This document shows, one piece after another, positions 10,301-51,755 of a stretch of DNA of 52,487 nt (the stretch's first letter is position 1; every line of letters begins with the position of its first letter). This DNA is from a virus (taxonomy: Duplodnaviria > Caudoviricetes). The notes beneath the pieces were generated by a model. The model made no database searches. It was not told the origin of the DNA and saw only the letters and a program-made list of their open reading frames with translations. The translations under genes and the position numbers were made by a program. The stretch lies in IMG/VR virus record IMGVR_UViG_3300035670_000291, positions 1 through 52,487 of that record, one strand, 5' to 3'.

Positions 10301-13251
10301 TATACACCATCTACAATCGTTGGATTTGAAACACCCGTTGATTGTGAAATACTTGCACTAAATCTATTTGTTGTTAACGTTGGTGCATATGATGCTGTTT
10401 CATTTCCAACGGTAACAATTATTGATCCTGTTGTTGATAAAAATGATGCAGATGGTACGAACCCAGTAGAGTATGCCGTTAACGTTGTATTTTCATTAGA
10501 AGCTAATACACCTATTTGTGATTTTACAATTAACGCATCTAATGTAACCTCATCAATATATTCTATATCATTGGAATCTGATCCTGTAAAATAATATGTG
10601 GTAGACCCGGCCGAATATGGGTATTCTATAGTTGAAATACTATATTGCGCAACTCCGTTTCCTATATTATTACTTATCAATGTTAATGCAGGTTTTCCAC
10701 TCCCACTATTTACTGTTATAGATGATGATGGTGATGTTAAATTTAATCTTTTTACAAAAATAGTCGCTGATTGTGGATTAGGATCCGGATCAGCATTTGA
10801 CATTTTATAAAAAAATTGATTTTTATCAGAGGTAGCTATAATACCTTTTGCCGCATCTCCTTTTGGGATTGCATCTATTGTTATAGATGATGTAAATACA
10901 CCATCTATTGTATGTAATTCAAAATCATAATTTGATTGACCTATTGCAAAAGTATATCCATTCTTATTGTCAGGAGTTATATCGGAAGAAGTAGAAACAA
11001 ATAATCTGTAAATACTTGCATTACCAACACTAGATGTATAATAAAGTGGAGGTGGAGAACCGGCCTCAGATGCAGAATTAATTACAAGACCCATAGGACC
11101 ATTATCAGGTAAATTCTGCTGAACTAATCGTATATCAATGTAATCATTCTGTACTACTGATTTGTATCCAGCATCCGGATTAAATGTAAAATTATTTTTA
11201 TCGGCAGTTGCATAAAATAAATAAGCGGGTGCACCCTGTTCGGTTCTAAATACTGTAAAATAACGATTTATATCTTCACAACTTGCAGTATAACTTATTG
11301 CTCCAACGGTAACGCCTGATATAGAACCGGTGAAATTCGCAGCTGTTAATTTATATGTATTTTCATCAACAACTTCTAATGTACCTGGAAAACCAGCTTG
11401 TGGCGATATCTCATTACCAGTAGTATCTACAGCAGAAGATGCAAATAATAATGATCCTGTTAATCCACTTTTTGTAAAATCAATTGTAATAAATGATGGA
11501 ATAACGGATGATGTAGAAAAATTAAAACTATTATTTGATAAATTAAGTTCTAAGTTTCTAGTAACGGATACATCATTACCACCTACAAACAAAGATGATG
11601 TTTGTAAGGTTATTGGAACATAATTATTATTTATGTCATAAATTTCAAATTTGAAATCAAAAGTTTCATTATTAATTTTAGTTGGAACATTTACAACTAA
11701 AGAAATTTCGTTTGGTGAAAAAGAACTTTCCTGTGCAGCTTTTAAACTTACATTTGATATATGCCATGTACCCGCTTTTACCAAAAATACAAGCTTACCA
11801 TCACCATTTGCATCTGGTTGAAAATTTATAGTTTGTCTATCGTATCTTCTAAATGGTGTATTTGTTTCTAATTCACCCAAAAACTTTCCAAAGGTATTTG
11901 AACTATTACTATTTACAAATGCAGAACCGCTACCATAAATTTCCAATAAAGCATAGTTACCCAAAGATGAACTCATTAACGGAGTAAAATCCAATTGGTA
12001 TTGAGTAAATCTAGAAAAATTTATAGAACCACTTGTCATAAATTTAAACAATCCTTGTAAATTTACAGGACTATTTACATCCGTAGTTGGTTGTAATTTA
12101 ACAGAACGTATTAATAAAGAATTATCAATAGAAACAATTGGAGAAGTTGTTATATTTTCTGTTTGCCAATAAGAATCTATAACTGGTTGTGAAAAAATAC
12201 CAGTTCTTACATTTAGTACCCCATTGAATTCATCTACTTGTAAAATTTCATTACTTTCTAATAACGCATCCTCTAATAGTTGATAATCACCTAAATCATT
12301 TTTTGATGATGCATATACTTTTATTCTGGATGCATCGCCTGTAAACGTTTCTAAATCCGTAATTCTTATTTTAGCAAATGATGAATTTATATTTGAATTT
12401 GTTATAGAAACACTTTCATCATATGTTATACTAAACGGTTTGTTTGAAAAATTTCTAATTCTTTCATAGAAAGGATCGGGTGTAGATCCTGTTATATAAT
12501 ATGGTATCGATACTAATGCTTTTTTATCATTAATAACATCTGTCAATAGTGGTGAATACGAAGAAGATAATCCAGAAACATTTATATTGAATCCTTCCAT
12601 TGATTGTGAAAAAAAACTGGATGTTGTTGATAATTCGTAAGAAATAGGTCCTCTATATGTTCTATAATCCGTATCTTGAATTGGTAATATGGATGTTCCA
12701 TTTATACTTCCTGAAAGTGTAACGCTTGTTACATTTCTATTATATATTGGTAAAACCGATTCTGTTATTTCTACTTGTGGCCTCCTATAAAAACGAATTG
12801 GTGTTATGTTTTTCTTAAATGGATTTACATTTATTGTTCTTTGCCACTTTACATTATATTTACCCACCCAATCTAATGGAACGGGTACATTTATTCCATC
12901 AACTGTGTAACTACTTAATTCACCTAAAATAGTTATAGTACAAGGTCCAAATGCGGTATCTGGATAAATATGAACGGATACAACTTTAGATGTACCCTCA
13001 TAATAAGATGGAATACCTGCAGATGGTTCTGAATATATAACGTTACCCAAAGAATCCTTAATTTCAATCTTAACCAAAGTATCAGGAACTAAATTTGTAG
13101 AACCTTGCACTAAAAATGCATTCTTACCACCCGTAAATGTATCGGGCAAATCCGTAACCCTAAAATACTGACTATTTGGGTCAAAATCATTTATGAAAAC
13201 ACTTATTTGTTCTAAATTTTGTTTAAATGATGTTTTTTTGAGTATTGCCAT
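4318..13251 (-). CDS. Long tail fibre (2977 aa) with C-terminal Peptidase S74 intramolecular chaperone
   Basis: SDERLKENI...GVEFDW...VGVIAQEIEKILPEAV...YEKIVPLLIEAIKEL; many G-x-I-G-G-W beta repeats; Ser/Thr/Gly rich. Confidence 0.88.
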   Translation of the reverse strand: MAILKKTSFKQNLEQISVFINDFDPNSQYFRVTDLPDTFTGGKNAFLVQGSTNLVPDTLVKIEIKDSLGNVIYSEPSAGIPSYYEGTSKVVSVHIYPDTAFGPCTITILGELSSYTVDGINVPVPLDWVGKYNVKWQRTINVNPFKKNITPIRFYRRPQVEITESVLPIYNRNVTSVTLSGSINGTSILPIQDTDYRTYRGPISYELSTTSSFFSQSMEGFNINVSGLSSSYSPLLTDVINDKKALVSIPYYITGSTPDPFYERIRNFSNKPFSITYDESVSITNSNINSSFAKIRITDLETFTGDASRIKVYASSKNDLGDYQLLEDALLESNEILQVDEFNGVLNVRTGIFSQPVIDSYWQTENITTSPIVSIDNSLLIRSVKLQPTTDVNSPVNLQGLFKFMTSGSINFSRFTQYQLDFTPLMSSSLGNYALLEIYGSGSAFVNSNSSNTFGKFLGELETNTPFRRYDRQTINFQPDANGDGKLVFLVKAGTWHISNVSLKAAQESSFSPNEISLVVNVPTKINNETFDFKFEIYDINNNYVPITLQTSSLFVGGNDVSVTRNLELNLSNNSFNFSTSSVIPSFITIDFTKSGLTGSLLFASSAVDTTGNEISPQAGFPGTLEVVDENTYKLTAANFTGSISGVTVGAISYTASCEDINRYFTVFRTEQGAPAYLFYATADKNNFTFNPDAGYKSVVQNDYIDIRLVQQNLPDNGPMGLVINSASEAGSPPPLYYTSSVGNASIYRLFVSTSSDITPDNKNGYTFAIGQSNYDFELHTIDGVFTSSITIDAIPKGDAAKGIIATSDKNQFFYKMSNADPDPNPQSATIFVKRLNLTSPSSSITVNSGSGKPALTLISNNIGNGVAQYSISTIEYPYSAGSTTYYFTGSDSNDIEYIDEVTLDALIVKSQIGVLASNENTTLTAYSTGFVPSASFLSTTGSIIVTVGNETASYAPTLTTNRFSASISQSTGVSNPTIVDGVYSIGQLTNDTGSVTLNVSYQDATGVITNFPKIITYSKAKKAAPVLAINITNNNQTVNAKSTGVQLSEFASASIEILETYDGVTTAKSIYGTPTITTLYGYSNYFYNSVNQTIALRTLSTDFEQLSISLEVLDSENVIRALDGNISLAKARNAVPNVEVSLVPVAQTILANSRGSGSVTPQPITVTAAEGGTDRFTSIGTLSFTNGLAGTATGNTINFSSNATSMLRDSGSVFIPINYTDGEGNTGLKTIVASVTRVRSAAPLTAISVTPQTQTVTSSSIGYGTPQNVTLTLQEVGGTPYTYTSTLGSTINTFSASVTNATIDTLTGIITPNTPNTSLGVNASSLITYINSEGTILTSSVSYSVGVALEGNDGGQGPGVVYRGTYVAGTTYFHTDIRRDIVVYSGQYYLANNTAKSGLTTWGTPPTDWTAFGATFDAVATNVLLTADATITRGLVMGTLDGFSGFIRSANATSLTAGKGYYFNYDGTFRFGDTGSSVVSWDGTNLTVSGTIKAQTGSIGGVIIAGNSIYTGTGTYANNNTGFFLSSSGHFSLEDKLSWDPVNNYLNVSGTITATTGSIGGITMSNASIYAGAGLWNDKATGFFISSSGHFSLEDKLNWNPITENLNISGTITATTGSIGGITMSNAAIYTGVGLWNNKNTGFFISRSGHFSLEDKLSWDPIGEHLNISGTLRANTGSLGGWTIDSDSIFSGTKRASSYNQFNSASMITIGSAGYISAPGFYISTTGQGVFSGSLQANGGTVLTTTNLLLFTASMHSFTSSVSSSLINISSSISVSIATLDDAIFTNSNGLIDKLPNASTSGLYTGKEYLGYFKVGSGWTSFLSSSGDFYLSGSGTQGLVWNSTANTLSIDGRVVARTGLIGGWGIGTSEISSSGTVGGSDGVFTTTGMRIGGTGYISAKNFSISSAGNVVLSGSIAANSGFIGGWVIGASSISTANVVGGSDGVGTTSGVILSKDGWISTKNFTVSSTGNVSMTGTVSATAGAIGSWVVDTDSIYVGTKRNSSYNQFNSASMITIGSAGYISAPGFFITTTGQSSFSGSLRANGGQLITPTQLLQFTASIQSFTSSISQSLINASASISQSIYVTDQSIFTNANGLIDKLPNPSTSGLYTGQQYLGYFKAGSGWTSFLSSSGDFYLSGSSTHGFVWNATRNTLSVDGNIIARSGSIGGWGIGTNEISSSNTVGGGDSSHTTTGMRISAVGWISAPNFYLASNGNVRISGSIYGGDITIGTAPSVFKADLNGIYLGNGTFASAPFRVTPGGALTATNATLSGGTIGGWSINTNNISSAGTSGGGDGSFTNSGIILNKDGWISSEKFFISSSGDVSFAGKLAYGVRGSGVNIMPLVWRYDPKPSSGILASSYENLTINGTAAENAINYGTDPFGKQSLLWECYPSGDGNADGGWNSTPTEIDNNKTYKFITYAKINNNADGDLYFGFYSISTTGALVSSSFLNNTVSDNTYFFFSQNPSGVNPIPFTNRWYLMVGYVHGKDYTGTTNMGGVYDVESGRKVFECYDFKWKTDGVNPIAKALHRCYHFYNTAGNGTTLYQQMFGPAVFEVDGTEPDLNRLLDKAQSLADGKGSGSFFDGKTFYAPIISGSSGDFTGKITATSGEIGGWLIDSDRLYSSGSGSNNIIKMKLEPNYANPQFTLTDVAGAPAVVIKTGQLLDTAVGAASINVTWNADKSGFTAGTTTDEVNETKYNLASSFTVSTTGLYTGTITLSSANAFTPLSSGYYGYSLSMQIASDNLFANVVYDSGVSSITSTTVGVQAVIPAVAAKQIELTFNSTGTYYIRSYWKRFAFGPDNPSASWNTISHNFPSFTLSKTTAYTELTDFGFQSIRSADRYVKIQRISSTDATMLQVGGDITATGNITAYYTSDERLKENIKQIDSAVSKINKINGVEFDWITDLIESKGGEDGYFIRKHDVGVIAQEIEKILPEAVATRDDGFKAVRYEKIVPLLIEAIKELKNEIEELKKNK
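6640..8210. repeat. Internal duplication in the tail fibre with a 918-nt (306-aa) offset; boundaries approximate
   Basis: ataaaaatcaccagatgaac at 6841 and 7759; gcagatccaat at 7193 and 8111. Confidence 0.85.
8245..8785. repeat. Three tandem 180-nt (60-aa) repeats in the tail fibre
   Basis: tttatcttc(c/t)aatga(g/a)aagtgtcc at 8281, 8461 and 8641 (SGHFSLEDKL three times). Confidence 0.9.
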
Positions 13252-13342: not shown

Positions 13343-13522
13343 ATGAAATATGCAATGTTACAGATAAAAAAAGAAACCCACGAACTTCTCAAAAACTATT
13401 GCGAAGAACATGGGTTTAAAATGGGTAGTTTGGTTGAAAACCTAATTAAAAAACATATAGGAATAATTAAAACTCAACCTACTATACTAAAAGCGGATAA
13501 GATTAAAAATCAATCTTACTAA
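13343..13522 (+). CDS. 59-aa ribbon-helix-helix-like DNA-binding protein
   Basis: MKYAMLQIKKETHELLKNYCEEHGFKMGSLVENLIKKHI...; strand-helix-G-helix pattern; A-rich leader; below the track cutoff. Confidence 0.7.
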   Translation: MKYAMLQIKKETHELLKNYCEEHGFKMGSLVENLIKKHIGIIKTQPTILKADKIKNQSY

Positions 13523-16500
13523 ATCCATTCTCTTTTTTTATTTCAATTAATCCATCTACAATATCTCTCATTTGTTCCAAATGTGAAATCATCCATATAA
13601 AATCAAATTGAGTTTTAAGATACTGCATCATCATAAACAAAGATGATAAGTTATCCGCATCCAATGTACCGAAACCTTCATCAATTACAAGGAAATTAGG
13701 ACGTGGTAAATTACATATGTTAATTAATGCAACTCTAATTGCCAATCCACTAACAAACTTCTCCATACCACTACACATCTCCAAAGGCCACTCTTGATCA
13801 TCGTAAACAATCTTTGCATTGATTGATTTACCATCCACTTCCATAACACATCCAAAATCTACAACCTGTGCAAGTATATTATTTACTTCTGTTTCGATTA
13901 CCGGTAATGCTTTTGAAATTAGTTCATAAGGTATCCCATCTCTCTTTACTGCATCTAAATAGTATGTGTATAGGCGGTTCTTTTCTTCCAAATCCTTAAC
14001 TTCATTCATCTTTTGCTTTATACCTTCTACAAATGAAGCCAGGCTTGCTATAGCACCATTGATTGTGGTTATATCCTTATTCAATTCTTTTATATCACCT
14101 TCAATTTTTGACTTACTATATTCTATCGTATTTATTTCAATTTGAAGATTTTTATTTCTTTCAATTGTATCTTCATTTTCATAATATAGTTCTATATCAT
14201 TTTCAACATTATCCAATTGAGTTTGTAATAGTTCCTCTTTTGTTTCTATACCTTTTAACTCAGCTTCTGTCTTTTCTTTGATAACAATTGCTTTTTGATA
14301 TTTAGCTTTCAAATCTACTAAAGTATCCCATTTAGAATTAACATCTGATAATGTTTGTTCATGTGTTTTTAATGTTGATATTAAAACATCAAATGTTTCC
14401 AATTGTTGTTCTTGTTCTCTAACTTTATTTTTTGTATCAATAGCATCTTTAACAAATACATTATTCATACAAAATTTACAATTAGGATCATACTCATGTG
14501 ATTCCAAATGAGATAACTTTTCTTTATTTGAAGATAATGATTGATTTATTAATTCTATTTGATGTGTTGTTTCTATAATTTGTTTTTTCAACAAATCATA
14601 TTCATTTTTAGCATCTTCAATTGGTTGTCCATTATGTGTTTTTATTTCATCAATTGATTGTGAAATTTCTAATAATTGATTTGTGTATTCTACAATTTTG
14701 GATTCTTTACTTTGTCTATCTACATCCAATAACTCAATTGATTTTTGAATTGAATCTCTTTTTGATTCTAAATTAGGTAAATCTAAATTTTTATCAATAG
14801 GTGTTAGTTGTTTATTCAATTCCACAATACTCTTTATCAAAGAATCTTTTTCTTCGTTCTTTTTATCTAAATTAGATTGTAATACTTTTAGTTTATCTTT
14901 TTTATCTTTTATTTCAACTCCTTTATCTGCAAGTTCTGATGTGAAATTTGTTTTTTTGAAGTTCTTAATTAAAACGGAAACTTCTTTAATGTCCTCACTT
15001 GCGGTTTCGTATAATTTATCAAATACATTAAGTCCCATAAACTGTGCCAACAAATCCTTTCTTTCCGATTGAGATTTATCAATAAACAAAGCATTGTTAC
15101 CTTGTAGAGATAATGCGGTTAATACAAAATCTTCGTACTTACCGACATATTGTTCAATTATTTGATTTGTATCACGTCTTTCCGTTCCGTTTAATGATAT
15201 AGATTGACCATCTTCTATTTTTGAAAATTGAACATCTACTTTTACATTCTTTCCTTTATTGATGGTTTTTGCTTCTCTACGAATGATATAATCTTCACCG
15301 TTTATTTGAAAATGTAATTCACACCAAAAATCGTTTTTACGATTATTCATTATATTTTGAGCCTTAAATGCTCTACTACACTTATCATATAAACAAAAAG
15401 ATATTGCATCAAAAATTGATGATTTACCACTTGCATTTGCTGCAAACAACCCCATCAATCCACCTAACTTTGTAAAATCAATTTTATTATCTTCACCATA
15501 TGAAAACATATTTGAAAATTTGAATTTTATTGGTTTCCAAAATATGTTTCTTTGAATATCTTCTTGATGTATTCTACTATTTACATCTCTATTTATTAAT
15601 TCCAATCCATCCAAATCTTCAGAAGTTGCAAATGGCATCATTCTTTCTACATATTCTTTTATCAAAGAATTTTGATAATTGATATCACTAACATCTTCAA
15701 AATCTAATTTGTTTACTCTATTACCACTTTTTAATTTAGAAAGAGAATCGGTTCTAATAATTGTAAAATCATCAATACCATATCTCAATTTAATTTCCGT
15801 CATTACCTTCTTCGTATCTGCGGTATCGGTATTTGATAAACGAACACGAAGTCTTGGAAACTTTGGCATATCATTAACGATTGGAACAATTCCTTTATCA
15901 ACATCCAATGTATAATATCCATAATCGTTTTTAATATCTATTTCTTCATACGTTAAGGTTTCTAAATCCCAAACTAATAAACCATGTTTATTCAAAGATT
16001 CTCCAAAGTTTTGTTGAATCAATGAACCCGCATATACTACTTTACATCCTTTCGGACTAATCATTTCTTGTCTTTTGTGAATATCACCCAATAGAGCCAA
16101 ATCGTATCCATCAAATATATCGGTTGTAAAATGTCTACTACTTACAACATAACCAACATCCGTTTGAGAATTATCAACTGGTCCGTGAAATAGTGCAATT
16201 TTTCTTTTAGCATCTTGCAATTGCCAATTATCTGCTAATGGCCAATTATCTTTATTATCAAAAATACTAAATACTGAAAATGCAACATCTCTATAATTCC
16301 AAACTTGCGTATCTCTTAAATAATAGAAGTTATCTAAATTCAATGCCTGAACGATTGGTGTCAATACATCAACCCTATCCGAATTGTTCATATTACAATC
16401 GTGATTTCCGGCAATAAGAATTGTAGGACATAATTTTGAACATTCTCTAAATAACCAAACAATTTCTTGAATTAATTCGGGAGACATTTCCAATTTAGCA

Positions 16501-16658
16501 TGTGCAATATCACCTGCCAAATAAATGATTGAATCTTCTGTTCCTCTTTTACGGATTTCATCAAACATTTTTATAAACACTTCTCTATACTCTTTGTGTC
16601 TTTTAACATTACGAATATGTACGTCCGCAATATGGTAAATCTTTTTTAGATTACTCAT
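13503..16658 (-). CDS. Fused SbcD(Mre11/gp47)-SbcC(Rad50/gp46) nuclease-ATPase
   Basis: Phosphoesterase motifs ADVH, AGD, GNHD, FHG, LGDIH; Walker A ANASGKSS; coiled coil with CKFC zinc hook; CSGME signature; Walker B/D-loop VIDEGFGTLD; ISH. Confidence 0.93.
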   Translation of the reverse strand: MSNLKKIYHIADVHIRNVKRHKEYREVFIKMFDEIRKRGTEDSIIYLAGDIAHAKLEMSPELIQEIVWLFRECSKLCPTILIAGNHDCNMNNSDRVDVLTPIVQALNLDNFYYLRDTQVWNYRDVAFSVFSIFDNKDNWPLADNWQLQDAKRKIALFHGPVDNSQTDVGYVVSSRHFTTDIFDGYDLALLGDIHKRQEMISPKGCKVVYAGSLIQQNFGESLNKHGLLVWDLETLTYEEIDIKNDYGYYTLDVDKGIVPIVNDMPKFPRLRVRLSNTDTADTKKVMTEIKLRYGIDDFTIIRTDSLSKLKSGNRVNKLDFEDVSDINYQNSLIKEYVERMMPFATSEDLDGLELINRDVNSRIHQEDIQRNIFWKPIKFKFSNMFSYGEDNKIDFTKLGGLMGLFAANASGKSSIFDAISFCLYDKCSRAFKAQNIMNNRKNDFWCELHFQINGEDYIIRREAKTINKGKNVKVDVQFSKIEDGQSISLNGTERRDTNQIIEQYVGKYEDFVLTALSLQGNNALFIDKSQSERKDLLAQFMGLNVFDKLYETASEDIKEVSVLIKNFKKTNFTSELADKGVEIKDKKDKLKVLQSNLDKKNEEKDSLIKSIVELNKQLTPIDKNLDLPNLESKRDSIQKSIELLDVDRQSKESKIVEYTNQLLEISQSIDEIKTHNGQPIEDAKNEYDLLKKQIIETTHQIELINQSLSSNKEKLSHLESHEYDPNCKFCMNNVFVKDAIDTKNKVREQEQQLETFDVLISTLKTHEQTLSDVNSKWDTLVDLKAKYQKAIVIKEKTEAELKGIETKEELLQTQLDNVENDIELYYENEDTIERNKNLQIEINTIEYSKSKIEGDIKELNKDITTINGAIASLASFVEGIKQKMNEVKDLEEKNRLYTYYLDAVKRDGIPYELISKALPVIETEVNNILAQVVDFGCVMEVDGKSINAKIVYDDQEWPLEMCSGMEKFVSGLAIRVALINICNLPRPNFLVIDEGFGTLDADNLSSLFMMMQYLKTQFDFIWMISHLEQMRDIVDGLIEIKKENGFSKIDF

Positions 16659-21992: not shown

Positions 21993-24900
21993 TTATGATC
22001 CAACTTCCAAAATTGGTTCAGAAGAACTTCTACCTGCTTTGTTAACAACCAATGTATTAGGATTAGTTGCAAAAATCTCAACAGGAGAACTACCATCTAT
22101 TGTAGTTGATGTTGTATTTTTACTTCCTTTGAAGAACGAATTATCCAATCCTCTCGTAGTATCCCTTGTATATCTATGATGTACTCTTAAATATCCTCTA
22201 ACAGGAGTTACATCTACCACAGACCCCGTTACCAAAGGTAGTTCGGAAGGTAATCCAGTTGAACCCGTAAATGGTTGTATGTTTAGTTTTGTTTCTATTA
22301 TTATCGATGAAGTAAGTTCTGTACCGCCTCTTGGATCACCCGTACCATCCGGAAGTAATACTTTGAATTTTGAAGTTGTAATTATCTTTTTTTCTTTTAC
22401 AACACATGCTCTAACTCTTCTCTTTTTTATTACATTATCCGTATCAAAATAAGTTTGAACTGCAAATCCACCACTTGCTGCATATAAACCAAATCCAAAT
22501 TTTTCATAATCATCTAAACCGACTATAGTAGTAAATGTTTCGGGTTTTTCTAGTAATGTTCTTTTACTAACTCCTGTTCCTATTGTGGCAGTTATTCCCA
22601 AATTTTCGGAAGTTACTAAAATATCATCTTGTGTATTTATTACAGTATCATATCCCAAATTTTGAGAACTTGCTGAAATTGGATTTGCTTCTAATACCGA
22701 TTCATATACCAAATTTTCACCAATAAGACTAGTTTCATCGCCGGCAATTAACGCATCGTATGTGGAGTATTCATTATCAAAACTTATATCATATTCTATT
22801 TCACCTGTGTAATCGTTAAAATCACCAGTTGGTTTTCTTTGCTTTACTTTACTTCTTTCTAAAAAATGGGGTTCAATCAAAATACCTGTTGTGGTTTTTG
22901 ATCTACCTGGCATTATTTTTTTAAGATTATCAAATAAACTATTTTCATATAAAGCAACTATATTCAGATATTGGTAAACATCCTTTTTTTGAACTCTATC
23001 AAAATAATAATTTCTTAAAGATTTTAAGGATTTATAATCATCAGAATATCTATCGGAAGGATCTCCTATGTAGTTTGATAAATTAAATCCACCAAAAGAT
23101 TTTGCAATATCTAAATTTAATTCTTTTGTAGGTGAAAAGAACGCACCCATTCTGGTAGAATCGGTTGGAGCAGTTTCTATTGATTTTTCAGTTGCACGAT
23201 ATTTTGATGATAAATCAGAAACCAATTGTTTCTCTTCAAAACGAATTTTATCATTAACATATCTTGAACCTATGCCATCTGGAATTGAAACTATTATGGT
23301 TCTATCTATTGGTTCAAAATTATATGGATAATCATTTATTGAGTTAAATTCATAAGCAGAAGCACTAAATGATGCCGATGGGTTTGTTGATGTAAATGCA
23401 GTATATATTGTACTATCTTCATAGTTATTTCTGGTAAGTGATCCAGATAATTTTATATTAGCCGCTACATTTATTAATCTTGTAGGATTTGAATCTCCTA
23501 AATTTTTTGGATATTCAAAATCAAGTCTAAACATCAAGTCGGAGGTAGAAGAGGAATAAGTATTTCCATGTATCATTTCAGGAAATAAAATGTGTTCTTT
23601 GAATATAGATGCACTTAAAGGTGTAGACCATAATCTAAATTCATCTATTGAACCAGTGTAATTACTTCCTATTTTTATTGTTGATCCACTATTCCAATTT
23701 GAACTTGTAAGTATATAATCCACCGAAGATGAAAATATAAAATTTCCCTTCTCAACTTGTCCTAAATATAAATTATATTTTGATGAGGTTGGTGAATTTA
23801 TTTCTCTAGAAACTTTAAAACCAAATAATTTACCATTAAAAATAGGAACTTCTGATGAAGTTATTTCTACATTTGTTCCATTTTGTAATAGATTTAATTT
23901 TGCTTTACCGTATTTAGAATTTTGAGAACCACTAATCTCTACATTCCATCCACTTCCTGATATGATTGTGTATTGATTACTATATGCAGGTTTTAGAAAA
24001 ATTTCTATTGTATCTGGCTTTCTATTTTTATTAGTATTAACCCAATTGGTTTGAATATACGAACCACTATTCATTTTTAAATAGTATGTTGTATTTTCCA
24101 TTTCTAACTTACCCGTACTTATGGATGATGTTGTTTCCGAACTAGGCCCACCGAATTCAAATACCGATAAATTTGATGCGGGTATTCCATAACAAGATAG
24201 TAATGCGTTTATTCCTCTTTTTGTACCTTTATGTTTAAGTAAGTAGGGTAGATTATTTATCAATCTTCTCCAAACTTCATAAGTTCTTTTTTTAGCAGGA
24301 TTATCTTCAACAACTTGACCACTATCATCATATCCAAAAGCGTATTTCCAAAGTTTTGAATCAACGGATAAATGTTTTGGATCAAATCCAAATGAAATTA
24401 AATAATCATATATTAACTTATTTGCTAATTCACCACTATCTTTGTATCCTAATTGACGTGAGTTTTCTATTGCCTTTGTATAATAATAAAAAGTATCAAA
24501 ATACTGACCAATCATTGAAAAGAATAATAACAAATGTTCATTCTCACCACTATTCTTTATATACTGTGGTATATTGTTATGAATAAAATTGTTATTATTT
24601 TTATCATACGTGTCTGCTAATTCTATTATATTGTTATACCAAGGTAAAACCGAAATAGTATCGGTAGATGATAATCTAACCGATCCACTATATGGCCATG
24701 TGATAGAATTAGAACCAGATGTTGTGTATTTAGATGATGGTGTGTATAAAAACGATTCAAAACCATCAAAATCTTGAATTAATTTTTGCTTTTTATCTCT
24801 ATTTCTTTGAACCTCTTGTTGAGAAGCTAGAGATGCGGTAAATGCTGATGGGTTTCCCGATGAGTTTGCAACATCGGTTGATGAACTTACTATTAAACTT

Positions 24901-27236
24901 TCGTAGTTTTCAATCAATTGTAACTTATATACAAAATTATCAACACGTTCCTTTGCCGATGAAAAGTGTACAAAATTTTCCCATATATAATTAGAACCAC
25001 TTACATATTCAATGTTTATATCATCAAAATCAATCTTTGATGAACTTAAATACGTTGTAATAAGCTGTTCGGATGTGGAGGAACTTAAAATTAATGTATC
25101 TAATGATTCAAAATCTGTTGATTTTCCTGTAACATAATCTATCTCAACATTAAAATTTGGTCCCTTTATAGGTGGACAATTTAACCCAACTTCATCTGTC
25201 AATACTACGGTTTCTACTATGGAATTTACTATAAGTTTTGTAATCCAAAGTGTAGTATTGTCATCAAATTCGTTTGGTAATGGTTCATATAATTTTAAAA
25301 TCAAAGATTTTATCTCCGATGTTATTATTTCATTACCCTGTACATCTTCTCCTTTTTCCGATAAAGTGTAATTATCATTTTCCCAAGATGAAATTAGTAT
25401 CTGTTCATCATTTCCAAAATTGGCAAGATGAGTTAAATACTTACTCTCTTTTTCTGGTTCTTCTAAAATTAATTTATCTAAATAAGATTCAAATCCATCA
25501 TATAGTGTTTTTCTTATTGAATCTTCATCTAAATTTAATGTTGGAAAATTTAATTTTGTTATTATTTCATATTCATTACCAATCAACTCCTTACTACCGG
25601 ATCTATTGTATGGTTTAAATATAATTGATACGGTATCCCTACCATTCCATGTAGGATAAGTTTCTGCTAATTTTTTTAAATTAATAGAAATTTTACCAGT
25701 AGGTGGTAAATTGGAAAAAAGTTGTAGTTTTGAACCATCCTTTGCTATCAAAAATGCATCAACACTAGTAGCAGCAAACGATGCATAATCTACATCATAA
25801 TCAATTTGCAAATCCGAAAAAGAAGGGATTTCTATAAAATCAGGAAATCTTATTTGAGTTATAGCAGGAAAATCATTTACTGCTAAAAATTTAAGTATTA
25901 CTTCTTTATTAGGACCTGTACCAGCTGCCTCACTTACAGGTTGAAATATGATTTTTTTAGAACCATATTCACCTTTAAAATCTTGAATAAAATATAAATC
26001 TACAAATCCTACATTGATATCTACTTTTACAAATTTATTTGGTGCAAGATATACATTTACATAATCTGCATTTTTTGTTGTAAAAGGTATTTTTATATTC
26101 TTATCGGTATCCGATTCCTTTATTTCTATATCATAATAATCATTAGGAATAGTAATAGAAGGTAATGGAATTATTTCTTCTTTTTTATAAATTATTGCAA
26201 TGACAGGACTTGATGATAATGAACTATTTGGTAAAGAAAATATAGTTCTTGTTGAATTCCATTTTGTGAAATCGTTTGGATAAGATTGTGCAATTGTTTT
26301 TGATGTATTATTTACAGAAACAATCGTATATTCTTTTGGAACGATTCCGTGGTTTATGTAAAAATCAGTATGACCATTCTTTGTAAAAGAATCTTTTATC
26401 TGCAATCTATCCGATATTCCATTTACTAATTTAACTACACCTTCGGATATTAGGTCATTAGTTGCACTATATGTTTTGTAACTTAATGATAAAATATCAC
26501 CTAACTCATTTTTAAAATTTGAGGTAAATGAAATACTATAATTTATTAAAACATCTTCAGCCGGTTTCGGTATTTCATCATCATCATTTTCAAATTCAAA
26601 ATCGCATCTAAAAGATCCATATGTTGAATCTAAATTTCTTTGTGAGTATTCTTTGTATTCTTTTGTTACTCTATCTAAACGATATTCTACTATCTTAACG
26701 TTTTCTTTATAAAGAATATCATTTTGAGTTGTTGCTTCTCCCCTAACTCTAGCCGTATCGGTAAAAGAATAATTAAAATCCAACAAAGAATTGGTTTGTT
26801 CTCTAACTCTAAAATTTTGCTGGTCTACTATTCCCGAATTTACATTTACATCATTTGTAGTTTGATAGGTTTTTTCTATTACTACTTCAAAATAATTTAT
26901 AGGTCTAAATCCTGTTCTTTTTGCTTTATAGGTTTTTTTATTACCAAATTTTAAAGAAGGAGCATATTTTTTACTTATAGCTGAACCAATACCCAATACT
27001 ACATCATCTTCATAAAATTCAGAAGAATCGGTTGATGCTAAATTTACTTTTAAATCTAATAAATCCGAACTTGAGTAAGATGGTAATACAAAAAATGGAT
27101 TAGTTATTGTTGGTGGAGTGTAAACACTTCCTGATGATGTATTTCCTGTGAATGGAATATACTCCCCAACTCCGTTATAAGGTGTAGTAGATACAACGCT
27201 CTCTCTTACTCTATTATTTGTTATTTCTTGTGCCAT
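21993..27236 (-). CDS. Large baseplate wedge protein (P2 gpI-like segment plus LamG-like domain)
   Basis: YLLKHKGTKRGINALLSCYG; IGSNYTGSIDEFRLWSTPLS; position in the baseplate cluster. Confidence 0.65.
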   Translation of the reverse strand: MAQEITNNRVRESVVSTTPYNGVGEYIPFTGNTSSGSVYTPPTITNPFFVLPSYSSSDLLDLKVNLASTDSSEFYEDDVVLGIGSAISKKYAPSLKFGNKKTYKAKRTGFRPINYFEVVIEKTYQTTNDVNVNSGIVDQQNFRVREQTNSLLDFNYSFTDTARVRGEATTQNDILYKENVKIVEYRLDRVTKEYKEYSQRNLDSTYGSFRCDFEFENDDDEIPKPAEDVLINYSISFTSNFKNELGDILSLSYKTYSATNDLISEGVVKLVNGISDRLQIKDSFTKNGHTDFYINHGIVPKEYTIVSVNNTSKTIAQSYPNDFTKWNSTRTIFSLPNSSLSSSPVIAIIYKKEEIIPLPSITIPNDYYDIEIKESDTDKNIKIPFTTKNADYVNVYLAPNKFVKVDINVGFVDLYFIQDFKGEYGSKKIIFQPVSEAAGTGPNKEVILKFLAVNDFPAITQIRFPDFIEIPSFSDLQIDYDVDYASFAATSVDAFLIAKDGSKLQLFSNLPPTGKISINLKKLAETYPTWNGRDTVSIIFKPYNRSGSKELIGNEYEIITKLNFPTLNLDEDSIRKTLYDGFESYLDKLILEEPEKESKYLTHLANFGNDEQILISSWENDNYTLSEKGEDVQGNEIITSEIKSLILKLYEPLPNEFDDNTTLWITKLIVNSIVETVVLTDEVGLNCPPIKGPNFNVEIDYVTGKSTDFESLDTLILSSSTSEQLITTYLSSSKIDFDDINIEYVSGSNYIWENFVHFSSAKERVDNFVYKLQLIENYESLIVSSSTDVANSSGNPSAFTASLASQQEVQRNRDKKQKLIQDFDGFESFLYTPSSKYTTSGSNSITWPYSGSVRLSSTDTISVLPWYNNIIELADTYDKNNNNFIHNNIPQYIKNSGENEHLLLFFSMIGQYFDTFYYYTKAIENSRQLGYKDSGELANKLIYDYLISFGFDPKHLSVDSKLWKYAFGYDDSGQVVEDNPAKKRTYEVWRRLINNLPYLLKHKGTKRGINALLSCYGIPASNLSVFEFGGPSSETTSSISTGKLEMENTTYYLKMNSGSYIQTNWVNTNKNRKPDTIEIFLKPAYSNQYTIISGSGWNVEISGSQNSKYGKAKLNLLQNGTNVEITSSEVPIFNGKLFGFKVSREINSPTSSKYNLYLGQVEKGNFIFSSSVDYILTSSNWNSGSTIKIGSNYTGSIDEFRLWSTPLSASIFKEHILFPEMIHGNTYSSSTSDLMFRLDFEYPKNLGDSNPTRLINVAANIKLSGSLTRNNYEDSTIYTAFTSTNPSASFSASAYEFNSINDYPYNFEPIDRTIIVSIPDGIGSRYVNDKIRFEEKQLVSDLSSKYRATEKSIETAPTDSTRMGAFFSPTKELNLDIAKSFGGFNLSNYIGDPSDRYSDDYKSLKSLRNYYFDRVQKKDVYQYLNIVALYENSLFDNLKKIMPGRSKTTTGILIEPHFLERSKVKQRKPTGDFNDYTGEIEYDISFDNEYSTYDALIAGDETSLIGENLVYESVLEANPISASSQNLGYDTVINTQDDILVTSENLGITATIGTGVSKRTLLEKPETFTTIVGLDDYEKFGFGLYAASGGFAVQTYFDTDNVIKKRRVRACVVKEKKIITTSKFKVLLPDGTGDPRGGTELTSSIIIETKLNIQPFTGSTGLPSELPLVTGSVVDVTPVRGYLRVHHRYTRDTTRGLDNSFFKGSKNTTSTTIDGSSPVEIFATNPNTLVVNKAGRSSSEPILEVGS

Positions 27237-27266
27237 CCGGATTTTGTATAAATATAAAACTGAAAA

Positions 27267-29777: not shown

Positions 29778-30863
29778 TTATACTATTTCAAAAATGTACT
29801 TTTCATCAATTATAGTAGAAATTCCACTTTCAACTACTTTTAGTTTCAATTTATATGTTCTATTAATAGGAAGTGTTGATAAATCCATTTTAAAATAATT
29901 ACCACTAGAATCGCAACTTAATTTTGTATAATCATCAAATGGAAATACAATATCACCAGTAACATAATCTTCTAATTGGTAATATGATGATGTAGGTAAA
30001 TACTTAACTTGATCGTATTCAAATGTTGTTCCAAATGATTTTAATGGATACGAATCTCTACCTTTTAATCTAATTTTTACAATAGTATCTTTTGGATATT
30101 TTGATTTCAAATTTGTAAAAATAATTTTATAATCATCATCCGACAAATATCCAGATACAGGAGATAAACTTGCAGTAACAAACGATACATCATCCCAAAC
30201 TATTTCTAATTTTGGTTCGAATATCGTATTAGTTTCTTTTGAGAAAAACTTTAAAACACCATAATCCGTAGTATTTTCTTCATTACTTAAACTATGGTGA
30301 ATTATAAATCCATTGTTGGGTATAGAACCACTTAACCACAATGATACTATTTCGGTAACATCCATTCTAACATCATCAGGTTCATAATTGTATGATTGAG
30401 ATGCTTCGGATGCGGTGTACCAAGTACCACCAGCCGCAGTATATGATCCAGTAGTACCTACTGCAAATGTTGCACCAGATCCACTAACCACATCTTGCCA
30501 TTTTGAAATTCCATCTCTATAATTCCAACTTACACCATCGGATGTTATTTTATCAAATTTTGTACCAGTTCCCATAGACCAACTTTGAGAAACGGCATTT
30601 GCGTATATAGTATATTCTATTGGTATTTCCTCTGATTGGAACGATTTTAAATTCAAATATGCTTTCCAATTCTGAGATATACCATTTTGTGAAAAAGATT
30701 CGGAAACATCTGATAAATTAAATTTTATTAATGCTCTATAAATATCTTTTATACTACCATAGTAAAGTTTTCCAACTTCAATTACTTCATCCCTTCCCGT
30801 ATTTTGATCAGGTTGCTGTAGATATACACTTGCATCGTATATTGATGTAAAAAATTTATGCAT
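29778..30863 (-). CDS. Virion protein with a DNRLRE-type beta-sandwich domain
   Basis: DASVY..QPDQNTG, RALIKFNLS, MDVTEIVSLWLSGSIPNNGFII, FFSKE...PKLEI. Confidence 0.65.
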   Translation of the reverse strand: MHKFFTSIYDASVYLQQPDQNTGRDEVIEVGKLYYGSIKDIYRALIKFNLSDVSESFSQNGISQNWKAYLNLKSFQSEEIPIEYTIYANAVSQSWSMGTGTKFDKITSDGVSWNYRDGISKWQDVVSGSGATFAVGTTGSYTAAGGTWYTASEASQSYNYEPDDVRMDVTEIVSLWLSGSIPNNGFIIHHSLSNEENTTDYGVLKFFSKETNTIFEPKLEIVWDDVSFVTASLSPVSGYLSDDDYKIIFTNLKSKYPKDTIVKIRLKGRDSYPLKSFGTTFEYDQVKYLPTSSYYQLEDYVTGDIVFPFDDYTKLSCDSSGNYFKMDLSTLPINRTYKLKLKVVESGISTIIDEKYIFEIV

Positions 30864-32881
30864 TATAATGCCCTCCCTTTAATATCTTTGTTAGGAAATT
30901 TAACTTCAAAAACACATGGATCTAATGATGGATAAACTATTTTACCCTTCGTTGCTTCATCTACATTGTAACGATTTGTTGAATATGGTTCACCACATAA
31001 ATTATAAACTTTAACCATTGGAACACTTACAACACCTTCTACATTTGCCAAAACTAACTCAATTTCGGATATGTTTATGGTTTTATTGAAAGTCCATCTA
31101 TCTATATTGAAATAGTCTTGAAGTTCAGTAACACATGCGGTCAATACTTCTCTTTTATTATAGTTTGAATAACATATTATTTCAAAATCAATTCCTATAT
31201 TAACTATATAACCATTTAATATATTGACAGTATCAGTAAGTACTCTATATTCTGCTAAATATGTTTTTAAATTTTGCTTAACTGCCTGATTTAAATTTGT
31301 TAATTTTTTATTTGAATCAAATCCCAAAACATACATATTAACTGCACCAGGATTGTTTACTTCACTTACATCATTAGTATTTAAATTTAAATACCTCCTT
31401 AATTCGGTTTGTATTTCTACATTTGATTTATTTTTTAAACCCTGAACTAAATTTGTAAATTCTGTTAATTTTTTAGGATTTGATAAAATTGATGATGGTG
31501 AATTAGTATCCGCCTCACCATCTGGAGAAACCCAAACCTTTGCTATACTACCATATTTTTCAGGCATACTCAATGCACGAACCATATAGTCTTGTCTGGT
31601 TACCGCTCTATTTTGTGAACCAAAAATACCTAAAGCATTTTGTCTTATTTCTTCAATACTTTCGGCACCTCTACCACCCGTTGCTGCTTCTATATTTTCT
31701 ATTGCTACGGTTGATTTGGTATCATCATATATTGGTAATAAATCATCGGTTAAAGAAAGTAAATCTTCATTATATTCTACATTTATTATAGTAGTTAAAT
31801 CGCCTGTATTTACATTCGATTCTATACCACCACCTACCAGATATTTGATATTCAATGTTTTTGAAACAGGTGCTACTCCAAATGTATTAGTTTTTAAAAA
31901 ATTAGAAGGATCTATTCCTGTATTTAATCTTGATATTGAATTAGATAATCCAAGTCCTATATTTTTTGAATTTGGTAATATAATTTCATCATTTAAATTA
32001 GTATCTCCTGGTCCAAACTGAATAGTGTGAGTGTTATCAGAATTCACTCTAACAGAAAATCTTCTTGGAACTTTTCTAACTTCCAAAATATATGGTACCG
32101 AATCAACAAATTGATTTAGTCCTGTGTTAACTTCCGTATTTGGAACTTCTGAAAATATGGTTTCTTGTGCTAAATAAGGAACTTCATACCATGTATTATT
32201 ATCTTCATCTGTTATGGAAGATATTGAAATTATATTTGTATCACCTAAAATGGCAGTTGGGTAATCCGTAGATGTATCAAATGAAATGGAAGTTTCTAAT
32301 TCTGTAGCAGATATTCCTTTTACATATTTGGTTATTAAATACCTACTGGGTTCTCCTGTTATAGCATCTCTTTCATAAACTTCTATTTCCCTATCGGTAG
32401 AATTACTAAAGTCAACCTCATCCAAAGTTCTAAAAATAATATCAGAATTTGAAGTCGACTGTATTTCCATACCATCTTTTATTCTTAAATAAAATCTAGA
32501 ATCAGGCCTGTTATTTGATCCCGTTCCTATTGCAGGTACCAATTGATAAACTTTAAAAGTTGTAACAGCAGGAGCGGATACTTTTGGTTTATATCCCATC
32601 GTCTGTGCAATTGCTATGACATTTTTTCTCTCCGTTGCATAATACAACATTGATTCTTTAAGTTGTGTATCTTGATAAAAGGATAATAAGTCACCCAATA
32701 CCGCTGCCTGTTCTATAAAAACCATACCAGGCGAAGCTTCATTAAAGTCCGAATAGGTTGATGGAAAATATGTTTTGGTAAAATCAATAAGAGCCTCTTT
32801 TAAAGAAGCAAAATCTTTATTTAAATAATTAAAATTTTTATTATCATTTCCCCAAACTTTATTTATAGGTCTTATAGCCAT
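30863..32881 (-). CDS. Baseplate wedge subunit (T4 gp6 / baseplate J-like)
   Basis: DFASLKEALI, ATERKNV...MGYKP, ATGGRGAESIEEIR, QNRAVTRQDY. Confidence 0.88.
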   Translation of the reverse strand: MAIRPINKVWGNDNKNFNYLNKDFASLKEALIDFTKTYFPSTYSDFNEASPGMVFIEQAAVLGDLLSFYQDTQLKESMLYYATERKNVIAIAQTMGYKPKVSAPAVTTFKVYQLVPAIGTGSNNRPDSRFYLRIKDGMEIQSTSNSDIIFRTLDEVDFSNSTDREIEVYERDAITGEPSRYLITKYVKGISATELETSISFDTSTDYPTAILGDTNIISISSITDEDNNTWYEVPYLAQETIFSEVPNTEVNTGLNQFVDSVPYILEVRKVPRRFSVRVNSDNTHTIQFGPGDTNLNDEIILPNSKNIGLGLSNSISRLNTGIDPSNFLKTNTFGVAPVSKTLNIKYLVGGGIESNVNTGDLTTIINVEYNEDLLSLTDDLLPIYDDTKSTVAIENIEAATGGRGAESIEEIRQNALGIFGSQNRAVTRQDYMVRALSMPEKYGSIAKVWVSPDGEADTNSPSSILSNPKKLTEFTNLVQGLKNKSNVEIQTELRRYLNLNTNDVSEVNNPGAVNMYVLGFDSNKKLTNLNQAVKQNLKTYLAEYRVLTDTVNILNGYIVNIGIDFEIICYSNYNKREVLTACVTELQDYFNIDRWTFNKTINISEIELVLANVEGVVSVPMVKVYNLCGEPYSTNRYNVDEATKGKIVYPSLDPCVFEVKFPNKDIKGRAL

Positions 32882-43490: not shown

Positions 43491-44315
43491 TTATTTAGTT
43501 TTCTTTTTACTGAATGTTAGAATTTTACCTCTTGCATCTGGTTTCCATTGGTTTACTGTTATTACTTCTCCGGATACCATGCTCTTCAATTTTTCTTCTA
43601 TCTTTTTAATTTCCTTTTCCTTTGATGTCTTTGCTGTTGGTGCGTAATCACTTATATAGGATGTATCCCATATAACATCTATCAATTGGATTTCGTTCAC
43701 CAAAAATTCGTTCCAATCTGCGTAAGTATTATCCATATCTGCGAAATAACTCAATATATCCTTTTTATGGGTTTTAGCGAATTTAGTTGCTACATCTATA
43801 TAATCCTTTAAGAATTTACGGATTTCTTTATTTTGTTCATCACCAAATGTTTCCATATGTGATATCTCTCTTCCTCTTTGTTTGAATTTGTTTTTACTAA
43901 ATTCACTGGCCCATAATGTATAAATGTTACTATGAGTTTCATCACGAAAATTAAGCCATCTTCTTCCTTCGTTATCTGGTTTAGACATAATATCATCCAA
44001 TCCTTTCACCAACAAAGTTCCTTCTAAATAAAACAATACACCATCTTCCCATATTCCCATTAATCCATTACTGATTGTACTATTTGGTACTTTGGTTGTT
44101 GTACTTATAGTCTTTTTAGTTCCCTGTAATCCGTTTAGTTGATCTAATCTTTTTATAGATGTTATATGAAATGTTCTAACACGTTTACCTTTATTCAACA
44201 TCTTTCCTATTTCAGGTGTTATTGGAAATGCCTCATTCATCCAAGCCAATTCAAATGCGTGCTTCACCCATTGTGCGTCTACACCTTCCAATAATAAATC
44301 CTTTAACTTTATCAT
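43491..44315 (-). CDS. Hypothetical protein with MIKLK-x-LL-x-E leader (candidate internal head protein)
   Basis: Begins MIKLKDLLLE; RTFHIT...ISTTT...WNEFLV. Confidence 0.65.
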   Translation of the reverse strand: MIKLKDLLLEGVDAQWVKHAFELAWMNEAFPITPEIGKMLNKGKRVRTFHITSIKRLDQLNGLQGTKKTISTTTKVPNSTISNGLMGIWEDGVLFYLEGTLLVKGLDDIMSKPDNEGRRWLNFRDETHSNIYTLWASEFSKNKFKQRGREISHMETFGDEQNKEIRKFLKDYIDVATKFAKTHKKDILSYFADMDNTYADWNEFLVNEIQLIDVIWDTSYISDYAPTAKTSKEKEIKKIEEKLKSMVSGEVITVNQWKPDARGKILTFSKKKTK

Positions 44316-44668
44316 TACTTCTGTTTGTGTTTAATTATTAGTTCACCTAATACTTCTATTAGTCCAACTAATTTCTGAAATTCAATTTGTTCGAAACCAT
44401 CTGCTTCCGTTATACCACAAAGGGTATTCAAATAATTAGTATATTCAGTTTCTGCCATTTTACAATCAAACATACCATCAACTGCGTTTTGGTAGTATGG
44501 TAGTTTAACTACAAAGTGGTTATAAGTTAAAAGTGCGGGTCCACCTTTCTCTTTTGCGTTCTCTGCTATCTTCGTTGCTCCCTCTAATCTTTTTTTACAA
44601 AATTCTATGAACTCTTTGTTATCTACTTTAACTTCTTCTTGTTCTAACAATGATTTTAACTTAATCAT
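44315..44668 (-). CDS. Hypothetical protein with MIKLKSLLE leader
   Basis: Leader shared with the neighbour, body unrelated. Confidence 0.65.
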   Translation of the reverse strand: MIKLKSLLEQEEVKVDNKEFIEFCKKRLEGATKIAENAKEKGGPALLTYNHFVVKLPYYQNAVDGMFDCKMAETEYTNYLNTLCGITEADGFEQIEFQKLVGLIEVLGELIIKHKQK

Positions 44669-44673
44669 ATTAA

Positions 44674-44892
44674 TTATATTTTACCCTTAACATCTTTTAA
44701 TGAACTATTAACTCTGTCTACAATTTTGGATAAATCATTTATCATAGATTTATCAATCCTATCCATCTTCATTTTATTCATTACATTAATTACACTTTCT
44801 AATGTTTTCAACTCATGCATTAATGGATATAGGAGTATTTCTTTCTCTAACTTTTGTTTTTGTTTTTCCTTTTCTTTAATTGATTCTGCCAT
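44674..44892 (-). CDS. Helical hypothetical protein
   Basis: 72 aa; ATATTTAT at 44907-44914. Confidence 0.6.
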   Translation of the reverse strand: MAESIKEKEKQKQKLEKEILLYPLMHELKTLESVINVMNKMKMDRIDKSMINDLSKIVDRVNSSLKDVKGKI

Positions 44893-44989
44893 CTTAAACG
44901 TTTCATATAAATATCCCTTACAAAAATAAATCCTCTTAAATCACCTTATGATGTGTCAACACATATATCAAAAAAACTCATATAGGGAA

Positions 44990-45200
44990 AAAACTTGACC
45001 GGGATATATTTACGTGTCCGACCGGGGTTCACGCGAATGCGTTTCTTCCAGTTACACGTAATTCAGTGCGCGTGAGTGTGGGTAGTCCTCTGTAACGTAG
45101 ACCAGTTGTGCGTTGCCGGGATGGCACAAGAATCCCGTTGCAACCTTTCGGTCACAACGGGTTCACCCATTAGTTGGGGCTACTCTCGCACGGCATGCAA
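44990..45200 (-). other. GC-rich structured non-coding island (candidate ncRNA, terminator or packaging site)
   Basis: Minus-strand CCCGTTGTGACC-GAAA-GGTTGCAACGGG hairpin (45134-45161) plus two interleaved inverted repeats. Confidence 0.5.
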
Positions 45201-45230
45201 TGTTTTGTGTATATAGTACCTACATACAAA

Positions 45231-45452
45231 TTATTTTATTTTGTTACATAGTTTGAATGTAGCAATCCATTCATCACTATTAAATAAGTTTATCATTCTT
45301 TCCTTATTGTTTCTATGTAGTGTTTCATCTACATAGTGTGCAGATATCCTTAGTTCTTTACACCAAGTCTGGAAAGATTTTTGTTTCATTGTTTCTGTTC
45401 TCTCTTTATCTATTTGTTTTAGTCTTTCGTCTGATATAGTGTGTGAGTACAT
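45231..45452 (-). CDS. Hypothetical protein
   Basis: Probable start MYSHTIS at 45452. Confidence 0.55.
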   Translation of the reverse strand: MYSHTISDERLKQIDKERTETMKQKSFQTWCKELRISAHYVDETLHRNNKERMINLFNSDEWIATFKLCNKIK

Positions 45453-46694: not shown

Positions 46695-46710
46695 TCCACA
46701 TTGTTTTAAT

Positions 46711-46746
46711 TAAAAAAGAAAGGTAGCGTTCTCGTACGCTACCTTT
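46711..46746 (-). terminator. Intrinsic terminator
   Basis: AAAGGTAGCGT/ACGCTACCTTT 11-bp stem followed by CTTTTTT on minus. Confidence 0.85.
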
Positions 46747-46823: not shown

Positions 46824-46894
46824 AGCGACGGGTAGGAATTGAACCCCTCCTTCCGGCTGGAATGCCAGATGTGCAACCATTACACTTCCATCGC
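46824..46894 (-). tRNA. Atypical tRNA-Gly (TCC-like) with an 8-nt anticodon loop
   Basis: Acceptor GCGATGG/CCGTCGC, U73, D-arm GTGT/GCAC, anticodon stem TCTGG/CCGGA with loop CATTCCAG, T-loop TTCAATT; no encoded CCA. Confidence 0.75.
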
Positions 46895-46899
46895 TTGTT

Positions 46900-46941
46900 G
46901 TGGGTTGGCCGGCTGAATACTAAGCCGGCCAATACTCCCAC
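46900..46941. other. Strong hairpin immediately 5' of the tRNA
   Basis: TTGGCCGGCT/AGCCGGCCAA (46905-46932) extended by GTGGG/CCCAC. Confidence 0.7.
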
Positions 46942-48388: not shown

Positions 48389-48495
48389 CAGTCAGGACAG
48401 GATTCGAACCTGTATGTAGTTTTCAAATTAGGCGTTCATCTCTTTCACATCAAGGCTGGGAGACGGCTTACATTGATACCATTTATCACCTGACT
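48389..48495 (-). ncRNA. tRNA-like RNA (107 nt) without a canonical anticodon arm
   Basis: Perfect acceptor AGTCAGG/CCTGACT, perfect T-arm ACAGG-TTCGAAT-CCTGT, D-like GATA-AATGG-TATC, ~60-nt non-canonical middle. Confidence 0.7.
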
Positions 48496-48500
48496 ATATT

Positions 48501-51709: not shown

Positions 51710-51755
51710 ACCACGCTTTTCCAGGCATAACTCATTGATTGTCAACCCTTTCCCT

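Follow-up and report, generated by a model that had tools for sequence, protein, structure and literature searches.

A GC-rich island in the genome of an uncultured tailed phage almost certainly carries an RNA structure that is under selection. The 5' third of the island, 45124-45191 on the minus strand, folds into a three-way junction in which a closing helix, P1, encloses two hairpins, H1 and H2. The window, which is the whole stretch of DNA analyzed here, is an IMG/VR record of 52,487 bases with a GC content of 31% and an estimated completeness of 28%.

Nearly all long open reading frames (ORFs) of the window are located on the minus strand. The recognizable genes encode a baseplate wedge protein, a fused SbcD-SbcC nuclease, a primase, a peptide deformylase and an HD phosphohydrolase. 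In the fused nuclease, the SbcD-like and SbcC-like parts form a single ORF of 1051 aa (13503-16658, minus strand), whose full-length identity with a protein of Microcystis phage Mel-JY01 (190 kb) is 41%. Judged by this nuclease, Mel-JY01 is the nearest cultured relative; at the sensitivity used, the RNA domain and the small protein of about 70 aa described below were both undetected in it. Parts of the window are contained in 20 sequencing runs, with no RNA run among those listed; the labels of the DNA runs read subsurface, aquatic or freshwater. Two copies of TTGACAATCAA(T/C)GAGTTA were also observed on the minus strand, at 51745 and 51617, 128 nt apart in a gene-poor stretch; these may be repeated promoters or protein-binding sites.

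The island was first described as about 210 nt rich in GC and without an ORF, and both points were confirmed. In 100-nt windows, the GC content of 45000-45199 is 0.51-0.57, against about 0.3 in the surroundings, and the longest ORF is at most 47 aa. In 80-nt windows, the stretch 44991-45224 peaks at 0.5875 GC, the maximum of the whole window (mean 0.310, 99.9th percentile 0.55). All motif positions of the original prediction were correct, including the two copies of GACCGGG at 44997 and 45020. The early/late boundary at which it had placed the island is not visible: small ORFs of the same strand flank both sides, and the closest recognizable structural gene, encoding the baseplate wedge (30863-32881), is 12 kb away. 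On the minus strand the island folds better than its shuffled versions (z -2.98, reached by 1 of 200), and on the plus strand it does not (z -1.35, 28 of 200).

Read along the minus strand, the junction consists of the 5' strand of P1 (45182-45191), supported by both the minimum free energy (MFE) fold and covariation; H1 (45166-45178), a short hairpin with a 4-bp stem and a 5-nt loop in the window; H2 (45134-45161), a long arm of 12 bp; and the 3' strand of P1 (45124-45133), which is U-rich and also forms the U-tract behind H2. Folded in isolation, the domain of the window has an MFE of -33.3 kcal/mol (z -5.8). H2 is the hairpin from which selection at the RNA level had initially been proposed. 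Its description proved accurate: the minus strand forms 12 pairs around a GAAA loop, including two G-U pairs that become A-C mismatches on the plus strand. The GAAA loop is confined to the subtype of the window, and the H2 loops of other members differ. Selection as RNA is borne out by the family, in which compensating changes keep the hairpin paired.

Relatives of the element were collected by several routes. A close relative (L002, about 90% identity) was reached through a neighboring protein. A search with the HD phosphohydrolase gave 80 related loci, in four of which nhmmer detected the 3' part of the island. A pattern derived from block C, a conserved segment of the 3' half, identified 25 viral stretches, and a relaxed form of the pattern identified 53 metagenome stretches. 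These 78 further copies and the window make 79, of which 62 are distinct. Block C was the search pattern, so its own conservation is partly circular. Since the relaxed pattern had no match in 185,579 prokaryote species genomes, the element is, judged by these sequences, not host-derived. Other searches were negative: the island in distant mode and the surrounding 10 kb in near mode had no match in a phage database, the loci searched for with the 136-aa upstream protein contained no pattern match, and the exact hairpin pattern had no match in viral contigs because the hairpin arms differ in relatives. So far, the element is known only from large, uncultured tailed phages of low GC content that form one clade and come from water samples.

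Only one copy of the element appears to be present in each genome. All 25 viral and all 53 metagenome stretches had a single pattern match per contig, five records of 33-117 kb each contained a single copy, and a repeat search revealed no second copy within the window, only short chance matches. A dispersed repeat or mobile element, such as the PeSL-type cassettes of T4-type phages, was rejected; several copies per genome would be expected, and one was found.

The main type of the junction, represented by 32 sequences aligned with MAFFT, has 99.4% of its cells paired and five pairs changed on both sides. Its covariation score is 0.164, against 0.080 in shuffled alignments (reached by 0 of 500), and partners slid out of register are 38-50% paired. 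The covariance model built from these 32 sequences located the domain of the window at the correct place, if weakly (17.5 bits, E 0.77 and 0.34), and also recovered other subtypes. In the cross-type alignment (A6; 53 rows, 40 distinct), which leans towards the structure because it was fitted to that of the model and includes one spurious reverse-strand partial row, 98.8% of cells are paired and both-side changes occur in 15 of 22 pairs, against 4.0 expected. Any of five measures was reached there by 0 of 500 shuffles, and slid controls were 41-48% paired. Folding each sequence in isolation avoids this bias; 43 of the 45 distinct domains take the same junction shape, with z values from -3.3 to -7.9, and the shape is reached by 1-15 of 100 shuffles per sequence.

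All three helices are kept while their sequences differ from subtype to subtype. In the cross-type alignment, P1 is 97.4% paired with four of nine pairs changed on both sides, H1 is 100% paired with changes of this kind in all four pairs (for instance, U-A in L150 and C-G in the window), and H2 is 99.7% paired with seven of nine. The fifth pair of H2 is A-U, C-G, C-G and U-A in the four subtypes. In L002, a G-U and an A-U pair of H2 have become A-U and G-U, a change that keeps pairing on the minus strand only. G-U pairs are frequent (UG 31, GU 37, GU 10 and UG 15 at four pairs), which fixes the strand as minus. Exceptions are few: P1 is weaker in L106, L122 and L154, where changes in its 3' strand are uncompensated, and in L120 and L150 the minimum-energy fold is not the junction.

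Covariation is thus strong for the 5' junction, including the originally noted hairpin, but not consistent for the interleaved stems from which a pseudoknot had been proposed. The complementary 8-mers (45010-45017 and 45054-45061) and 7-mers (45029-45035 and 45069-45075) are indeed present and interleaved, but they lend the pseudoknot no support: they do not exceed chance expectation, and relatives do not conserve them. The island contains 3 perfect helices of at least 7 nt; among 1000 mononucleotide shuffles the mean is 0.89, and 6.7% reach 3. An interleaved helix pair is present in 8.8% of shuffles. Across 61 distinct relatives, just 71% of the cells of the 8-bp stem are paired; at three positions the pair is broken in most relatives (55, 40 and 36 of 61). 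The predicted fold of the 3' half of the window, which includes this stem, has 67.6% paired cells, against 66.4% in shuffles, and 6 pairs changed on both sides, against 5.3 (176 of 500 shuffles reach 6). On two cell-based measures, just 2 and 3 of 500 shuffles equal this fold; relatedness alone can produce such values. In the second stem, the arm 45029-45035 has been replaced in the closest relatives L106, L122 and L154, and its partner arm stays. An H-type pseudoknot was therefore rejected.

Downstream of the junction, all on the minus strand, the element continues with a variable middle (45062-45123), whose length ranges from 23 to 92 nt across the family and which is unstructured beyond shuffles (56 distinct sequences, mean z -0.31, 5 of 56 below -2). 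It is followed by block B (45050-45061), a conserved 12-mer with the consensus UUWCRUGURRCU, which is nearly invariant though it was outside the search pattern; an A-rich spacer (45026-45049) of fixed length and varying sequence; the conserved and GC-rich block C (44997-45025), with two GGUC repeats 23 nt apart that correspond to the two plus-strand GACCGGG copies; and a U-run (44988-44993), which contains 5-8 U in the family. The U-run may mark the 3' end of an RNA. It would be a poor intrinsic terminator because no stable hairpin precedes it.

The distance from block B to the U-run is identical in 60 of 61 distinct sequences, the exception being one indel in the A-rich spacer, and the alignment of this fixed-length 3' half (A7) has 83 columns from 82-nt inputs. 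Mutual information revealed no consistent pairing of its columns, and RNAalifold returned -0.82 kcal/mol with no consensus stem. The 3' half therefore has no conserved fold, and its constant spacing and pair of direct repeats would also suit a site acting as DNA. Both halves travel together: the 5'-domain model, run against 1.03 Mb of DNA from related phages, had matches solely in contigs that also carry block C. The middle, being unstructured and 23-92 nt long, fits two elements joined by a spacer as well as one RNA.

Several readings of the conserved blocks were tried. A start-stop mini-ORF formed by RUG and URR of block B was rejected, since 5 of 61 sequences do not fit, and sigma-54, MotA-box and T7-like promoters, for which the 3' half was inspected by eye, are unconserved across members. 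When block B is read as a DNA palindrome, inspection by eye shows symmetry in just a few variants. Directly beyond the U-run is a further conserved stretch (44940-44987, minus strand), which contains TTGACA and of which the family has two related versions; the promoter of the following genes may be located here.

The element is tied to the gene upstream of it and not to any downstream gene. The upstream ORF (45234-45452, minus strand, stop codon at 45231-45233) encodes 73 aa from its first ATG and belongs to one family of about 70 aa that is present in 72 of 73 loci (alignment A8). Public data contain 739 clusters of homologues, all of about 70 aa and without a Pfam domain. No credible match was found for the protein in Pfam, PHROG or PDB sequences; a weak match to HTH_19 (E 0.027) occurred in 1 of 24 family members. 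The predicted structure consists of four helices (pLDDT 77, pTM 0.38) and has no structural or fold match, and a protein atlas returned nothing useful (best score 0.85).

Between this gene and the junction is an A/T-rich spacer of 39 nt (45192-45230, minus strand), measured from the stop codon to P1. The corresponding gap is 32-49 nt in 54 of 55 distinct loci. The spacer may hold a promoter: that of the window contains a -10-like TATATA (45210-45215), and many main-type spacers contain, by eye, TTGGTT and TTTAAT separated by 17-18 nt. A promoter scan found sites no more common than in shuffles. On the other side of the element, the first downstream ORF (44674-44892, minus strand, 72 aa) is unconserved in the family and has been replaced in L002; the 69 first downstream ORFs fall into nine clusters (30, 17, 6, 6, 5, 2, 1, 1 and 1 members). 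Farther downstream, the adjacent minus-strand ORFs 44315-44668 and 43491-44315 have near-identical starts, MIKLKSLLEQ and MIKLKDLLLEG, and in L084 the ORF downstream of the element starts with MKLKELLLK. An N-terminal tag common to small proteins that otherwise differ might direct their targeting or processing.

Two giant ORFs are also present on the minus strand of the window, 4318-13251 (2977 aa) and 21993-27236 (1747 aa). A PHROG search with the latter gave no match, and its homologues in two relatives share just 34% identity over about 70 residues. Its start codon lies in a stretch of 14 nt (27225-27238) that is perfectly complementary to 45119-45132 (blastn-short E 0.046, the best match of the repeat search), a segment covering the P1 3' strand and the next bases of the RNA. 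This complementarity is absent in two more distant relatives with homologous ORF starts, the counterpart 13-mer of the main type occurs solely in the element itself in five related records, and in a duplex-energy screen of start regions the background was as strong as the matches. Judged by these sequence comparisons, the complementarity is probably due to chance.

The expectation of an RNA outside the known families was upheld, as the hairpin belongs to a covarying, strand-specific junction to which Rfam offers no counterpart. At the gathering threshold, the only Rfam match in the window is a tRNA (46824-46894), and ten related loci gave none. With E up to 10, the island has one snoRNA match (E 6.6), and two other subtypes have best values of E 9.1 and 5.5. 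No family of Rfam 15 therefore scores at or near its gathering threshold in the element. A tRNA or tmRNA was rejected on the basis of ARAGORN, which found 0 such genes in the whole window, and of Rfam, which has no match of this kind in the island. A riboswitch aptamer was likewise rejected; neither the loops of H1 and H2 nor the residues of the junction are constant from one subtype to the next, and the genes that follow are mutually unrelated.

Among known elements, H2 can be compared with intrinsic (Rho-independent) terminators. It is a GC-rich stem-loop behind a gene, directly followed by a U-rich run, and its 12 pairs, 7 of them G-C, and 4-nt loop lie within the limits used for such stem-loops (5-20 bp, 3-8-nt loop). 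The first 8 nt of the tail contain 5 U in the window and 6-7 in the main type, enough for a U-tract, and just 4 in L106 and L120. Many transcripts may therefore end at about 45124. The original suggestion of a terminator stands to this extent, but the same U-rich run is a strand of the covarying P1, which encloses H1, and a plain terminator leaves the covariation of P1 and H1 unexplained. For this reason, the 5' domain is read as a stable RNA module. A plain terminator of the same phage provides the contrast to H2: at 46703-46745 (minus strand), behind the tRNA-like gene, a perfect GC-rich stem is followed by a long U-run in textbook form.

The C4 and CI antisense RNAs of phages P1, P7 and P4 form an Rfam family of short RNAs processed from a longer transcript. 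The element resembles them as a putative short phage RNA with a closing stem and two hairpins, but it has no Rfam match, and no complementary downstream targets varying with its loops were seen. RNAC and RNAD of phage T4 are located in the tRNA region of that phage. PMC9697503 describes them as small RNAs whose functions are still to be established. By description, the element is similar, as a putative small RNA encoded by a large tailed phage with a tRNA-Gly 1-1.6 kb upstream, but it is tied to a small ORF and not to the tRNA cluster itself. ARAGORN detected a tRNA-Gly(tcc) 1-1.2 kb upstream of the element in 2 of 20 loci scanned (L086 and L091), and the tRNA match of the window, 1.6 kb upstream on the minus strand, is borderline (29.5 bits, threshold 29) with an anticodon loop of the Gly(UCC) type. 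Directly before this tRNA-like sequence there is a GC-rich hairpin (about 46903-46930). Another observation concerns a perfect tRNA T-arm at 48397-48414 (partial Rfam match, 14 bits, E 3.9). The ends of the surrounding stretch of about 100 nt (48395-48500, minus strand) could pair much like an acceptor stem; possible interpretations are a tRNA interrupted by an insertion, an RNA resembling a tRNA, or the remnant of a tRNA gene.

No description of the element was found in the literature, which is weak evidence that none is in print. Candidate structured RNAs have been derived from IMG/VR by Fremin, Bhatt and Kyrpides (2023; PMC10690425), and the element may already be included, without a name, among the 10,006 motifs which that paper reports. 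Unless it is one of these, it represents a previously undescribed family.

The reading tentatively preferred here is that of one discrete RNA of about 204 nt, which spans both halves and in which the 3' half acts as RNA. The element would be a small ncRNA gene running from 45191 down to 44988 on the minus strand, of which the first 68 nt or so are the junction kept by selection at the RNA level. Transcription would begin at or just before P1, from a promoter in the A/T-rich spacer, or the 5' end would arise by processing of the mRNA of the small gene. The junction might serve as a stable, nuclease-resistant scaffold, and the working end would be the unstructured conserved 3' half, with block B, the A-rich spacer, block C and the U-run. 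A protein or a second nucleic acid could recognize this half, and the obvious candidate partner is the neighboring 70-aa protein.

A possible, if somewhat doubtful, alternative divides the element in two: a junction-shaped terminator and 3'-end stabilizer of the small gene, and a control site for the next unit that acts at the DNA level. Here H2 and the U-tract would end transcription, the U-rich 3' end, once released, would then pair with the 5' strand to form P1, and block B and the two GGTC repeats, at fixed spacing, would bind a protein, possibly the 70-aa protein. This account is consistent with H2 followed by ATTCTTGT, which agrees with the terminator consensus (1 site against 0.4 expected), and with the main-type tail, UUUCUUUGU; a middle part that is unstructured and free in length, a 3' half that keeps its spacing, contains two direct repeats and lacks an RNA fold, gene turnover directly after that half and a neighboring small protein that is helical in its model also suit it. 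It has to accommodate the covariation of H1 and P1, neither of which a plain terminator needs, and a 70-aa protein that lacks a recognizable DNA-binding domain, apart from the single weak HTH_19 match, and any fold match. Judged by eye, block B is also a palindrome in just a few variants, and the promoter-like sites are at the level of shuffles.

The remaining readings are less likely than these two accounts. A cis-acting leader is improbable; by analogy with HK022 put, the nascent junction would act on RNA polymerase, which would then read processively through the U-runs into the variable genes. The put RNA, made early in a phage transcript, resembles the element as a two-hairpin module of about 70 nt, and the order of a module of about 68 nt near the likely start site, U-runs and then phage-specific genes suits such a role. 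PMC9974457 cites put RNA as an antiterminator. The likeness is one of description, however, and the element differs from put in its conserved 3' tail and terminator-like arm; the loops and junction residues are unconserved across subtypes, the linkage is to the upstream gene and to no downstream gene, and the conserved 3' half is left unexplained. It is very improbable that the element is a primer or origin RNA whose GC-rich 3' part would stay hybridized beside the A/T-rich DNA and start replication. The model for such a structured primer transcript is ColE1 RNA II. A single copy per contig, even in a record of 116 kb, a GC-rich block followed by T-runs and an adjacent gene for a small helical protein would be compatible with this role, but GC skew does not change at the site, no replication genes lie beside the element, and the case is one of analogy. 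The initial alternatives, a pseudoknotted ncRNA or a terminator beside a packaging site, are barely credible in that form: the complementary 7- and 8-mers do interleave, but their stems are those of chance, with one arm replaced in the nearest relatives, nothing speaks for a packaging site, and no terminase gene is nearby.

If one discrete RNA is indeed made, a further step would be a dedicated phage ribonucleoprotein, with the 70-aa protein bound to the junction and a host factor caught by the tail. This is rather unlikely at present. Candidate host factors for the tail would be RNA polymerase, a ribonuclease or a defence sensor. To our knowledge, roles have been established for few phage ncRNAs, and hardly any of them are from the uncultured phages that abound in lakes. 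With about 80 variants, a fixed partner gene and a conserved tail, the family is a ready target for probing, protein-binding experiments and metatranscriptome searches. The junction also indicates that a hairpin resembling a terminator in an AT-rich phage can be the arm of a larger selected structure. The ribonucleoprotein, if real, would be a new kind of RNA-based device for takeover or counter-defence in abundant freshwater phages.
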